From Candidatus Wildermuthbacteria bacterium (GTDB lineage: Bacteria > Patescibacteriota > Minisyncoccia > Minisyncoccales > UBA10102): DNA of 64,000 nt. Both the position numbers and the translations under genes were made by a program. Location of the stretch: contig JACPMK010000002.1 in the NCBI GenBank assembly GCA_016186115.1, forward strand, positions 72,983 through 136,982, read 5' to 3'. Positions 7,626 to 48,904 of this stretch are shown piece after piece (position 1 is the first letter of the stretch; every line of letters starts with the position of its first letter). The notes beneath the pieces were generated by a model. That model did not search any database, had not been told where the DNA came from, and worked only from the letters and a program-made list of their open reading frames with translations.

Positions 7626-7827
7626 ACTCTCATTGTAAGAGTTTTGCCATCAATGATGCAAATCGATCTAGTTGCTCGAGCAAGTAATTTTTCTTTGCCC
7701 CGCCCCGTCATTCGGCTGGGGCGGGCCACATTTCGCTCCGCCTGCGGCGGAACTCAACGTGGACACCTACGCGTCTGCAGAAAAACCACTTCCTCTCGCT
7801 TTTTACTACCAATTACTCACTACTAAT

Positions 7828-7989
7828 CTATTCCCCGAGTTGTTTTTTCAGCTGCTCCAAGATGTGTCGCTTTGTTTCTTCGACGGTTTGGCCGCTCACA
7901 TCGGCCGCTTCTTTGAAGGTTTTTTCGGTAATATTTTTATCGTTGCCCATATCATTGTTGAGCATGCCGCACCCGCAATTGTAGCACAT
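7828..7989 (-). CDS. Small Cys-rich protein (53 aa)
   Basis: Own translation: MCYNCGCGMLNNDMGNDKNITEKTFKEAADVSGQTVEETKRHILEQLKKQLGE. It starts 32 nt after the ygjP-like stop, has no clear SD, and is too short for the ORF track. Confidence 0.4.
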   Translation of the reverse strand: MCYNCGCGMLNNDMGNDKNITEKTFKEAADVSGQTVEETKRHILEQLKKQLGE

Positions 7990-23104: not shown

Positions 23105-24529
23105 ATGATGAAGGTGTCAAATACGCTGTCTCGGCGGAAGGAAAATTTGCGGCCGAGAAAGAATAAAGAAATACATCTTTTTGTCTGCGGACCGACCGTA
23201 TACGATTTTTCGCATATCGGCCATGCCAGAACCTATATTGCTTTTGATGTGATTGTGAAATATTTGCGAAGCATTGGTTTTCGCGTGGAGTATCTTCAGA
23301 ATATTACCGATGTTGACGACAAAATTATCAATCGGGCAAAAGAATTAGACACGAGTCATATCGCCTTGGCAGAAAAGTTCGAAAAAGATTATCGGGATGA
23401 CATGAAAACGCTCAAGGTGGACAGTGTGAGCAGATATGCAAGAGCAACCAGACATATCAAAGAAATCATTGGGCAGATCCAACGGCTATTGCAAAAGGGT
23501 TATGCTTATGAAATTACTGGAGACGGGATTTACTACGATATCTCGCGATTCAAACGCTATGGCAAGCTTTCCGGCAGAACAAGCACGCAGGCAGAAGATG
23601 CAATTTCAAGAATTGATGAATCGATACATAAGCGCAATAAAGGCGATTTTGCGTTGTGGAAGCTTACCCCGCGAAGCCCAAAGGGCGAAGTGGGATTCGT
23701 GGAGTCAAGCTGGCCAAGCCCGTGGGGAAAGGGGCGGCCCGGCTGGCATATCGAGGATACAGCAATTACCGAAAAATATTTCGGGCCGCAATACGATATT
23801 CATGGCGGAGCGAGAGATTTATTATTTCCTCATCATGAAGCAGAAATAGCGCAGATGGAGGCACTTTCTGGCAAGCGACCCATGGCAAAGTATTGGCTGC
23901 ACACGGGATTCCTCACTATTCATGGAGAAAAGATGTCGAAATCTCTTGGAAACTTTATTACCATTCGGGATTTTACAGAGAAATATTCAGCCCGCCTCCT
24001 TCGTTTTTTGGTTTTGAAAACGCATTACCGCTCCCCTATTGACTACAGCGAAGAAATGGTAGAACAAGCACGGCATGAGTTGGCAAGAATAGATGAATTT
24101 GTAGGCAAACTTCATGAAAAATCCGAAATCCGAAGCACGAAGCATGAAACAAATTCAAAATTAACTTTAAAATTCAAAAAGGATTTTACAAAAGCGATGG
24201 AAGATGATTTCAATACTCCAATTGCAATTGCATCGTTGTTTCAGTTGATTAATCAGGGTAATATCTTTTTGGATAAAGACCGTATTGGCCGCACCGCCGC
24301 AAAAGCGCTGCTCGATTTCTTTCAAGAGATCGATACGATTTTTGGATTTATTTTCTGGCGGGAAAGAGCTGCAATTTCTCCCGATATTAAACAACTCATA
24401 CGGGAACGTGAGGAATATCGCAAAAAAGGAAATTGGGAAAAAGCAGACGAACTGCGCGCAGTTTTGAAGACACGCGGCTGGACCGTGGAAGATACCGCCA
24501 CTGGTCCAAAAATCAAAAAATCTCCCTAG
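23105..24529 (+). CDS. cysS: Cysteine--tRNA ligase
   Basis: HIGHARTY and KMSKSLGN class-I motifs are present. Confidence 0.95.
   Translation: MMKVSNTLSRRKENLRPRKNKEIHLFVCGPTVYDFSHIGHARTYIAFDVIVKYLRSIGFRVEYLQNITDVDDKIINRAKELDTSHIALAEKFEKDYRDDMKTLKVDSVSRYARATRHIKEIIGQIQRLLQKGYAYEITGDGIYYDISRFKRYGKLSGRTSTQAEDAISRIDESIHKRNKGDFALWKLTPRSPKGEVGFVESSWPSPWGKGRPGWHIEDTAITEKYFGPQYDIHGGARDLLFPHHEAEIAQMEALSGKRPMAKYWLHTGFLTIHGEKMSKSLGNFITIRDFTEKYSARLLRFLVLKTHYRSPIDYSEEMVEQARHELARIDEFVGKLHEKSEIRSTKHETNSKLTLKFKKDFTKAMEDDFNTPIAIASLFQLINQGNIFLDKDRIGRTAAKALLDFFQEIDTIFGFIFWRERAAISPDIKQLIREREEYRKKGNWEKADELRAVLKTRGWTVEDTATGPKIKKSP
24117..24180 (+). repeat. Degenerate heptanucleotide array inside cysS (family copy 1)
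   Basis: tccgaaa tccgaag cacgaag catgaaa caaattc aaaatta actttaa aattcaa. It encodes SEIRSTKHETNSKLTLKFKK. Confidence 0.8.
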
Positions 24530-45334: not shown

Positions 45335-46048
45335 TCATTTTGAGATGATCTTTCCGTGTTTGTTGTGCCACTCCCCAATTTTTTTATGATCACCAGAGAG
45401 TAAAGCTTTAGGCGCTTTCCATTGAATTCCGGGAGCTGGCTCAAAAACCTCTGGGCGAGTGTATTGAGGATGCTCCAAGAACCCTTCGACAAGCTCAGGG
45501 CAAGCTTCCCCTTTTTTAGATATGAGATGTTGCGCCAAAAACTCGGGTTTTCCAATAACTCCTGGGATAAGCCGCGTAACGGTTTCAATTATAATCATGG
45601 CTGGCAGTTCCCCTCCCATAAGAACATAATCCCCTATTGAAATTTTTTCATCTGCAATGTACCTTGCCACTCGTTCATCAATTCCTTCGTATCTGCCACA
45701 GATCATAATGATCTGATCAAGCTTGGAGAATTCGTATGCCTTCTTTTGGGTAAATTTCTTCCCTCTTGGCGTGAACAGGATAATTTTTGAATTTGTTTCG
45801 GATTTCGGACTTCGTGCTTCGGATTTTAACTCCTGTACCGCCTTGTATATAGGTTCTATTTTCATTACCATTCCCAGTCCCCCGCCAAAGGGTTTTTCGT
45901 CAACGGTTTTATGCTTGTCATCGGCCCAATCCCGCAGATTATGGACGCGTATATCAAAAATTCCTTTCTTCTTTGCTCTTTTGATCAATGATTCATTGCA
46001 AAAAGGTTCAAACAATTCTGGGAAAATTGTAATCACATCAAATATCAT
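45335..46048 (-). CDS. trmD: tRNA (guanine37-N1)-methyltransferase
   Basis: MIFDVITIFPELFEPF, CGRYEGIDERV and DYVLMGGELPAM are present. Confidence 0.95.
   Translation of the reverse strand: MIFDVITIFPELFEPFCNESLIKRAKKKGIFDIRVHNLRDWADDKHKTVDEKPFGGGLGMVMKIEPIYKAVQELKSEARSPKSETNSKIILFTPRGKKFTQKKAYEFSKLDQIIMICGRYEGIDERVARYIADEKISIGDYVLMGGELPAMIIIETVTRLIPGVIGKPEFLAQHLISKKGEACPELVEGFLEHPQYTRPEVFEPAPGIQWKAPKALLSGDHKKIGEWHNKHGKIISK
45785..45827 (-). repeat. Degenerate heptanucleotide array inside trmD (family copy 2)
   Basis: Minus sense reads aaaatccgaag cacgaag tccgaaa tccgaaa caaattcaaaa. It encodes KSEARSPKSETNSK. Confidence 0.8.
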
Positions 46049-48244: not shown

Positions 48245-48904
48245 TCATATTCGACACACTTGCAAGTCCCTAATTGGACGGAAGGTTTTGCGGTGGATGG
48301 CGCAAGGACCGTATTGTTTGAGCATTTCGAGGTGCATGGCGGTGCCATATCCCTTATGGCGATCGAACCCATATTGCGGGTATCTCTGGTGATACTGAAG
48401 CATGAGGCGGTCTCTTGTTACCTTGGCAATGATTGAAGCTGCAGCGCAAGAAAATACCTTTTCGTCTCCCTTTACGATCGGTTTTTGTGGAATGTCGCGA
48501 AAAGATATTTTCATGTTTCCATCGATCATTAAAAAATCTGGGGTTCGGAGATTTTTTTCCAGATCGCGTACCGCTTTTTCCATAGCCAGTTTGGTGGCTT
48601 GGAAAATATTGATTTGATCAATTATTTTTTCTGAAACTATGCCAACCCCCCATGCGATATGAGGATGGACAGTGAGCAAGCTATACCATTGAAGCCGTAT
48701 TTTTGGAGTGAGTAATTTGGAATCGCGGATTTTCCCTTGAAGATTCTTAAAATCCGAAGCACGAAATCCGAAATTCGAAACTGCTACTGCCGCAGCGGTT
48801 ACGGGACCGGCAAGCGGTCCTCTTCCTGCCTCATCAAGCCCAACAACAACTTGATACCCAATTTTCCACAGCTGCTTTTCTTCGGCAAAATTTGGCGTTT
48901 GCAT
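48245..48904 (-). CDS. rnhB: Ribonuclease HII
   Basis: GLDEAGRGPLAGPV and DSKLLT are present. I prefer the start at ATG 48904; the ORF-track start 48958 would overlap dnaE. Confidence 0.85.
   Translation of the reverse strand: MQTPNFAEEKQLWKIGYQVVVGLDEAGRGPLAGPVTAAAVAVSNFGFRASDFKNLQGKIRDSKLLTPKIRLQWYSLLTVHPHIAWGVGIVSEKIIDQINIFQATKLAMEKAVRDLEKNLRTPDFLMIDGNMKISFRDIPQKPIVKGDEKVFSCAAASIIAKVTRDRLMLQYHQRYPQYGFDRHKGYGTAMHLEMLKQYGPCAIHRKTFRPIRDLQVCRI
48747..48780 (+). repeat. Degenerate heptanucleotide array inside rnhB, antisense to the gene (family copy 3)
   Basis: ttaaaa tccgaag cacgaaa tccgaaa ttcgaaa. It is read antisense as SNFGFRASDFK. The 19-mer ttaaaatccgaagcacgaa is identical to copy 2. 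Confidence 0.8.

Follow-up and report, generated by a model that had tools for sequence, protein, structure and literature searches.

Selfish DNA lodged inside intact essential genes is rare and, to our knowledge, has so far been known mainly from Rickettsia. The Rickettsia palindromic elements (RPEs) are palindromic repeats of ~100–150 bp that occur between genes and also, in frame, within unrelated housekeeping genes, where protein surfaces are believed to accommodate them (PMC10969869). The repeats described here—inverted arms of about 66 nt, each with four tandem heptamers at its outer end—share these habits, and a preliminary description of this DNA had likened them to RPEs as tiny in-frame insertion elements. 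The comparison bears up well, for the repeat is discrete, palindromic and multicopy, has sharp ends and moves as a unit. The likeness is one of behavior only, however. The sequences probably differ; the host here is Candidatus Wildermuthbacteria, not a rickettsia; and whereas RPEs are confined to Rickettsia and its relatives, the heptamer-arm family spans at least 11 phyla. It leaves mostly single arms of 32–64 nt in genes, rather than whole elements, and it differs further in its four-heptamer arms, its link to a four-helix-bundle gene cassette and its rRNA insertions. PARCELs, too, are palindromic coding repeats, horizontally distributed among distant microbes (PMC2996958), but they form tandem 25-residue domains in surface proteins, not single inserts in housekeeping enzymes or hairpins between genes.

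Other small repeats resemble the family in other ways. Like MITEs and REPINs (Correia, ERIC, REP doublets), it is small, non-coding, multicopy, hairpin-forming and mostly intergenic, and it forms subfamilies within a genome. With MITEs it has small size and terminal inverted repeats—the two 66-nt arms—in common, but it makes no target-site duplication, and no parent insertion sequence (IS) with a transposase was found. Unlike those of REP and REPIN sequences, the arms are A-rich and not self-complementary; they have no GTAG/CGTC-tagged palindrome, and no RAYT gene was found in their neighborhoods.

The intervening sequences (IVS) of 23S rRNA genes in Coxiella and Leptospira share inverted, stem-forming termini with the family, as well as tandem heptamers just upstream of an ORF, the PF05635/TIGR02436 family to which that ORF belongs, insertion at an rRNA helix tip and a suspected selfish status (PMC4990558). 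In Coxiella, the heptamers, GACAGAT, directly precede the S23p ORF, and the inverted ends form a stem that is cut by RNase III; the mobility of the element is described as unknown (PMC4990558). Proteins of the S23p family have been reported from two further settings, rRNA insertions in CPR bacteria (PMC11270868) and cas loci (PMC3936711). The Coxiella element differs in its heptamer and in being single-copy, in rRNA, whereas heptamer-arm copies have 66-nt arms conserved across phyla, mostly lack an ORF, and are dispersed between genes and into protein-coding genes as well. Finally, there are the abundant, mostly intergenic 7-nt arrays without known function: STRR in cyanobacteria, GGGAATC in Xanthomonas and TAACTGA in Beggiatoaceae. 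Xanthomonas genomes carry 70–75 convergent, that is, inverted, pairs of GGGAATC arrays apiece (PMC4692102), and for the heptamer arrays of Beggiatoaceae, cyanobacteria and Bacteroidetes a mobile repeat-binding protein has been proposed, though not identified (PMC4679880). The four-helix-bundle gene figures in neither of these papers. All these arrays resemble ours in kind, but they are variable in length and lineage-specific, whereas an arm is always four units and a conserved, non-repeated tail. In the open-access literature we found no description of the heptamer-arm family, either by sequence string or by concept, and nothing that joins arms, four-helix-bundle gene, ORF-less hairpins and in-frame inserts.

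Three arm copies occur in the window (the whole 64-kb stretch of DNA that was analyzed; 44.6% G+C), one each in the intact genes cysS, trmD and rnhB (Table 1). Their products match proteins of a Candidatus Wildermuthbacteria MAG (NCBI) at 100% identity. The preliminary description had reported heptamer arrays at these sites, read in sense in two genes (KSE.RS.K.ETNSK) and in antisense in the third (SNFGFRASDFK), with the reading frame of each host gene preserved. The sense copies are those in cysS and trmD, which use the same frame; the antisense copy is in rnhB. The reported sites and readings stand, as do the 19-mer common to trmD and rnhB, TTAAAATCCGAAGCACGAA, and the two reported 15-mers common to cysS and trmD, one of which proves to be a 17-mer, AAATCCGAAGCACGAAG, the other being GAAACAAATTCAAAA. 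Over a 35-nt stretch, the trmD and rnhB copies are 94% identical. One point needs correcting. The arrays do not vary in length: each copy comprises exactly four heptamers of an arm of fixed length. The copy in cysS extends ~20 nt past what heptamers by themselves would suggest, into the A-rich tail.

Table 1. Arm copies in the 64-kb window and the genes that contain them.
Feature	Position	Strand	Reading relative to gene	Match	Units and peptide
cysS arm copy	24119..24182	+	sense	nhmmer E 3.4e-7, model 1-44 (24119-24162), envelope to 24182	AAATCCG AAATCCG AAGCACG AAGCATG AAAC, then A-rich tail AAATTCAAAATTAACTTTAAAATTCAAAAAGG; peptide KSEIRSTKHETNSKLTLKFKK
trmD arm copy	45784..45826	-	sense (minus-strand gene)	nhmmer E 3.2e-11, model 1-43	AAATCCG AAGCACG AAGTCCG AAATCCG AAAC AAATTCAAAAA; peptide KSEARSPKSETNSK
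rnhB arm copy	48750..48781	+	antisense (minus-strand gene)	nhmmer E 2e-7, model 1-32	AAATCCG AAGCACG AAATCCG AAATTCG AAAC; peptide SNFGFRASDF
cysS, cysteine--tRNA ligase (intact)	23105..24529	+		PDB match E 1e-117	
trmD, tRNA m1G37 methyltransferase (intact)	45335..46048	-			
rnhB, RNase HII (intact)	48245..48904	-			

Other genomes supplied a profile HMM of the arm, and in the window these three copies were its only significant matches (the next best had E 1.1). All begin at model position 1 and they end at different points, the cysS envelope reaching ~64. Groups of at least three CGAAR units, spaced 7 nt apart, are found in the window at the same three places and nowhere else; shuffled windows contain 0.1 such arrays. 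The copies are solo outer ends (32–64 nt) of 66-nt arms, not loose heptamer arrays, and as single arms they show no folding of their own in a fold z-score test. Profile searches detected neither a full hairpin nor a four-helix-bundle gene in the window and 10 kb beyond it, nor any arm in the 10 kb past the window's left end. The host of the three copies is a tiny groundwater bacterium.

The anatomy of the arm emerged from other genomes. A 16-mer seed, AAATCCGAAGCACGAA, was scanned against one genome per species (596 Gb) and located at least 120 loci. The count alone is uninformative, because a random 16-mer is expected a few hundred times in 596 Gb; what matters is that nearly every match runs on identically, with further heptamers and then CGAAACAAATTCAAATGACCAAAATTCAAAATTCAAAAC, and that a recognizable arm surrounds 116 of the 130 seed occurrences. 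The further copies to be expected of an insertion element are many, and they lie in other genomes. Each arm begins with four heptamers of the form AAATYCG, one of them AAGCACG or AATATCG, and continues with AAAC and an A-rich tail that retains 7-nt phasing. When 194 arms were aligned on the CGAAAC junction by weight matrix, the information content rose from 0 to ~1 bit exactly 26 nt upstream of CGAAAC and faded ~40 nt downstream, with random sequence in the flanks. So sharp an edge implies that the arm is a discrete unit of ~66 nt, in which the heptamers number exactly four and the array does not vary freely in length.

The full element consists of two ~66-nt arms, inverted, with the heptamers outermost, around a variable center. 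Arm pairs within 200 nt of each other occur 65 times in L–R order versus once in R–L order, and no arrays were found in shuffled loci. In the median an element is 151 bp long, and fold z-scores lie between -5.0 and -6.7. Target-site duplications were not found: 43 of 62 elements have no match between their flanks, and the others match at chance level. Centers differ between subfamilies and are conserved between copies in one genome (L016 and L028; L033 and L065, these as reverse complements), and because copies within a genome have their centers in common, the hairpin must be copied as a whole. The element is copied as a unit, then, and it inserts without target duplication at unrelated sites.

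Among the loci listed, the host MAGs belong to at least 11 phyla: Planctomycetota, Desulfobacterota, Patescibacteria (many classes), Verrucomicrobiota, Lentisphaerota, Omnitrophota, Acidobacteriota (Aminicenantes), Chloroflexota, Bacteroidota, Gammaproteobacteria and Hydrogenedentes. The arms, at 30–40% G+C, form AT-rich islands in hosts of 33–71% G+C, and beyond the seeded copies they number 4.4 per 100 kb, a density comparable to the three per 64 kb of the window. We infer that the element has moved between phyla by horizontal spread. Its neighbors are ordinary chromosomal genes, and 106 of the 130 copies lie outside long open frames. No gene for a transposase, recombinase or reverse transcriptase was found beside the copies, among 150 neighboring ORFs, so that mobility is read from the structure of the copies only. 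For genome annotation, the arms are a nuisance: they yield spurious low-complexity peptides and hypothetical ORFs in MAGs.

Several familiar identities were tried and rejected. The elements are not transcription terminators, for they occur in every gene-orientation context, divergent pairs included; nor are they classical cut-and-paste MITEs, having neither target duplication nor conserved target. An autonomous, transposase-bearing copy was sought among the 150 neighboring ORFs without success, and no arm pair in the loci spans a gap of over 400 bp. We dropped attC sites, REP/RAYT, DNA-uptake sequences, parS, CRISPR repeats and telomere-like addition on the absence of their defining motifs. 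Searches of Rfam at gathering score recovered only tRNA and rRNA, both in the window and in 18 loci that carry elements.

How can such DNA persist in an essential gene? The unit NNCGAAR cannot generate a stop codon in any frame, which would explain why it is the outer 32 nt of the arm that persist, cut back to the stop-free stretch of the frame in use and to a length divisible by three. These 32 nt have on average 5.72 of six frames open, against 3.28 in composition-matched shuffles and 4.34 in random segments of the window; for the whole arm the figure is 3.58, against 1.85 in shuffles. That the four-heptamer end lacks stops in nearly all six frames would account for its survival in protein loops. 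The sense copies in cysS and trmD use the fully open frame (KSEIRSTKSETNS...). The antisense frame used in rnhB has two stop codons in the inner part of the arm, and the copy there ends at model position 32, exactly where the stop-free part ends.

That these segments are insertions, as the preliminary description had read them, agrees with what is found in other organisms, both distant and close. Opposite NFGFRASDF, the RNase HII of T. maritima has a gap of 9 residues plus 1, and opposite ARSPKSE, the TrmD of S. aureus has a gap of 7; the distant enzymes have no homologous segment. In the AlphaFold model of TrmD, the insert prolongs helix 64–78 and makes a loop at residues 79–86. No net insertion is seen in CysS, because its best relative in the PDB has a segment of similar length. 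Orthologues from related Parcubacteria (60–68% identity) often have element-derived peptides at the same loops: KSEARNTKSETNS and KFEIRNSKFETNSKFQF in CysS; LKSEIRNPKSKTNSKFK and similar peptides in TrmD; and, in the RnhB of P0340, HEIRNPKQIQNSK...FEIRISN, which represents both arms, the whole mini-hairpin. Two relatives of TrmD have inserts at a second site as well, in the interdomain linker.

We think it probable, on this evidence, that cysS, trmD and rnhB each preserve, in frame, what is left of one arm of a selfish repeat that forms hairpins. In an essential gene a copy would last only if the product can accommodate it, as an extension of an rRNA helix tip or as a loop on a protein surface, and the inserts would be neutral passengers. 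The stop-free 7-nt unit can then be seen as a design that permits selfish DNA to occupy essential genes, one that is at work in the streamlined genomes of CPR bacteria, where it adds loops to core enzymes.

Might the arms be, not selfish DNA, but a cis-acting signal selected by the host, an array for a nucleoid, RNA-binding or DNA-uptake protein? Three kinds of observation speak for this. First, in two CysS orthologues (63–64% identity) whose DNA was read, the loop consists of four heptamers and then AAACAAATTC, framed as in the window; the codons on either side have diverged, and CGA and NCG codons persist even where they encode different residues. This pattern points to nucleotide-level constraint or renewal, and the renewal may take the form of repeated insertion at permissive loops or of conversion from other copies; the presence of the same element DNA at the same loops in related Parcubacteria also speaks for insertion. 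Second, there is a systematic difference between the arms, with AAGCACG on one and AATATCG on its partner. If the seed-bearing arm is used to orient each element, the third unit of the partner arm is AATATCG 22 times out of 52, and AAGCACG stands there just 3 times, numbers that are no more than suggestive, the loci having been chosen by a 16-mer from the element itself, which biases heptamer and asymmetry statistics. The pairing of AAGCACG with AATATCG is the same in seed-free elements and in copies on viral contigs, and in the folded element it gives a conserved 3 × 3 internal loop. Third, the two arms do not co-evolve in a compensatory manner: the true partner ranks 19th of 45 in the median, and an arm shows no greater complementarity to its own partner than to arms from other elements. 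They look, therefore, like two recognized ends rather than a compensated stem, as would be expected of two protein-binding sites, and selection on the hairpin itself is argued against. A heptamer-binding protein has been proposed in the case of the TAACTGA arrays (PMC4679880).

Even so, a host signal seems to us an unlikely explanation. Insertion sites and orientation contexts are haphazard, the elements being distributed 15, 15, 10 and 8 across the four gene-orientation classes; copies in rRNA and in protein loops have no obvious role as signals there; and truncation tracks the constraints of the reading frame rather than a functional core. A signal and a selfish origin are, moreover, not mutually exclusive.

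Replication slippage is a second alternative. The preliminary description had allowed for a slippage-prone motif, and the arrays could, in principle, have arisen in place within A-rich, lysine-coding loops, their likeness to one another being convergence. Heptamers are the repeat size reported to be over-represented in bacteria (PMC4692102); most TrmD orthologues are already rich in lysine and serine at this site (LKSKIKNQKSK); and in one CysS orthologue there are four identical ATTCGAA units that look homogenized. Slippage is not supported, however, because arms do not depart from four units, their outer end is cut off very sharply, and the junction and tail (CGAAACAAATTCAAA...), which are non-repetitive, recur across phyla. 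The same DNA is read in antisense in rnhB, and copies in one genome have the centers of their subfamily in common. We consider slippage decidedly improbable.

Still less probable is adaptation at the protein level, by which hydrophilic linkers would have been selected and the likeness in DNA would be a by-product of codon usage. The two sense copies do give similar hydrophilic peptides, and orthologues keep the pattern K-x-E-x-R-x-x-K-x-E-T-N-S. But the same DNA produces an unrelated, phenylalanine-rich peptide in rnhB, which contradicts the idea; third codon positions are conserved and first positions vary; and in other phyla this DNA is mostly intergenic. As for an artefact of assembly or sequencing, we give it practically no credence: the genomes seen here with the CGAA-type family are, to be sure, all MAGs, and BLAST of the full element against collections of cultured phages and plasmids found no match, but three essential genes stay in frame with the copies inside them, the copies turn up again in independent assemblies, for which different assemblers and also long reads were used, and an analogous cassette architecture exists in finished plasmids of cultured cyanobacteria.

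If the segments are relics of a selfish repeat, what might the parent element be? One clue is a complete, ORF-less hairpin (7751–7874 of locus L034) that forms a 138-nt insertion at a helix tip of a 16S rRNA gene. It matches published intervening sequences, since the layout is like that of Coxiella (PMC4990558), and in RNA such a hairpin is predicted to be processed, probably by RNase III. A second clue comes from three arm pairs, among the loci, that are 355–400 bp apart. In L094 (a Patescibacteria MAG) and L032 (Opitutaceae), an ORF of ~120 codons lies between the arms and matches TIGR02436, 'four helix bundle protein' (E 1.5e-18 and 2.5e-14, respectively), as well as PF05635, '23S rRNA-intervening sequence protein'. 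A third four-helix-bundle ORF, in L165, is likewise bracketed, by AT-rich arms of the CAAAAT type, with the start codon inside the inner arm. Thus all three such ORFs in about 1.5 Mb of loci are flanked by arms (3/3), and it is on these three ORFs only that the cassette link of the CGAA-type family rests. A four-helix-bundle gene is the largest cargo found between arms. Arms that bracket the gene for the IVS protein, and also form rRNA insertions, allow one family to connect the two phenomena. These ties to IVS-protein cassettes and rRNA insertions, like the half-elements and the many-phyla family, go beyond what the preliminary description had offered.

We know of no role assigned to the IVS protein or S23p family since the 1990s; the family is related to Avd, the cofactor of diversity-generating retroelements. 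The ORF-less hairpins probably derived from the four-helix-bundle cassette by loss of the ORF. Our best guess as to recognition is that the four or five heptamers are bound by the four-helix-bundle protein, as a pentamer, or else by a host enzyme, a guess that draws only on the association of arm with gene and on a published pentamer structure cited in PMC4990558. More broadly, it is possible, though we hold the idea with considerable doubt, that four-helix-bundle cassettes with inverted heptamer arrays constitute a widespread new kind of mobile element that has no recognized transposase and in which the pentamer recognizes about five heptamers. Were this so, ORF-less miniatures of it would explain STRR, GGGAATC and TAACTGA arrays, the intervening sequences of rRNA and the low-complexity loops of CPR proteins. 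The link of arm and gene in itself makes the four-helix-bundle protein a concrete, testable candidate for the binder, or the mover, of the heptamer arrays of cyanobacteria, Xanthomonas and Beggiatoaceae.

The arrangement also occurs on plasmids. By tblastn, the four-helix-bundle protein is encoded on 27 plasmid records from cultured organisms and enrichment cultures, 13 of which were fetched for analysis of the flanks. In cultured cyanobacteria and a Chloroflexota enrichment, inverted tandem heptamer arrays flank the gene, and the unit is specific to the lineage: AATTCAA in Nostoc flagelliforme and Aulosira, CAATTCG in N. punctiforme, GTAATTC in Dolichospermum, AATCCCC and AATCGTA in Planktothrix, ATGAAGG in Chlorohelix and CAGTGAC in Euhalothece. 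Period-7 arrays above the 99th percentile of the null occupy both flanks of 11 of the 16 four-helix-bundle genes, and one flank of three more. In a 50-kb control stretch of plasmid pNPUN02, strong period-7 arrays are confined to the two directly beside the four-helix-bundle gene. These plasmid genes sit between operon partners—cas2 and cas1, hsdS and hsdR, and the adaptor and permease of an RND system.

Inserts of this kind are not confined to protein-coding genes. Relative to the Rfam model, the 16S rRNA gene of L034, one of the loci that carry the element, has two insertions, one of them a heptamer-armed hairpin (table). The arm family of the window occurs, too, on contigs that IMG/VR classes as viral (L121-L142), which may be real phages or fragments of host DNA, with full hairpins on L122, L126, L128, L136 and L139. 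On plasmids of cultured bacteria (L231, L233, L236, L237, L228 and L232), four-helix-bundle genes together with heptamer arms split the partners of defence or transport operons: cas2/cas1, hsdS/hsdR, helicase/methylase and RND adaptor/permease, for example.

TrmD relatives have a second insert site, the linker that joins both domains, and the inserts there are element-like. Around the trmD copy of the window, host bases on one side, GGCGGTACAGGA, are complementary to those on the other, TCCTGTTCACGCC, and a weak stem is predicted from them with the insert as its loop (z -1.8); this complementarity may be chance. Three tRNA genes lie immediately downstream of trmD, and within the window as a whole six tRNAs are found at the Rfam threshold.

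In the CysS orthologue L144, a perfect GC-rich palindrome, CCGCCAGCTGGCGG, is nested within the arm and encodes the peptide NPPAGG, which is present in two further CysS orthologues as well. Perhaps the palindrome is itself a small inserted element, a second one besides the arm.

Other repeats occur in the window. One large reading frame contains 274-nt direct repeats, 73% identical, and four 69-nt units, which together suggest a repeat-domain protein; a perfect inverted repeat follows. The nusB frame is extended at its N terminus by a strongly lysine-rich segment, absent from typical NusB.

Coordinates of the inserts, repeats and reading frames
Feature	Location	Detail
16S rRNA gene	L034:7457-8000	
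GC-rich insert	L034, near model position 80	103 nt; own internal repeat
Hairpin insert	L034, near model position 187	138 nt
CysS arm with palindrome	L144:10990-11060	
TrmD relatives with linker inserts	L178:1630-2391 and L198:91-876	EKIRNSKFEIRNSR; ERNSKFKIQNSKF
trmD copy with host bases	window:45765-45845	
tRNA genes	window:44794-45271	
Direct repeats and 69-nt units	window:11968-14006	
Inverted repeat	window:14181-14227	22 nt
nusB frame	window:47527-48057
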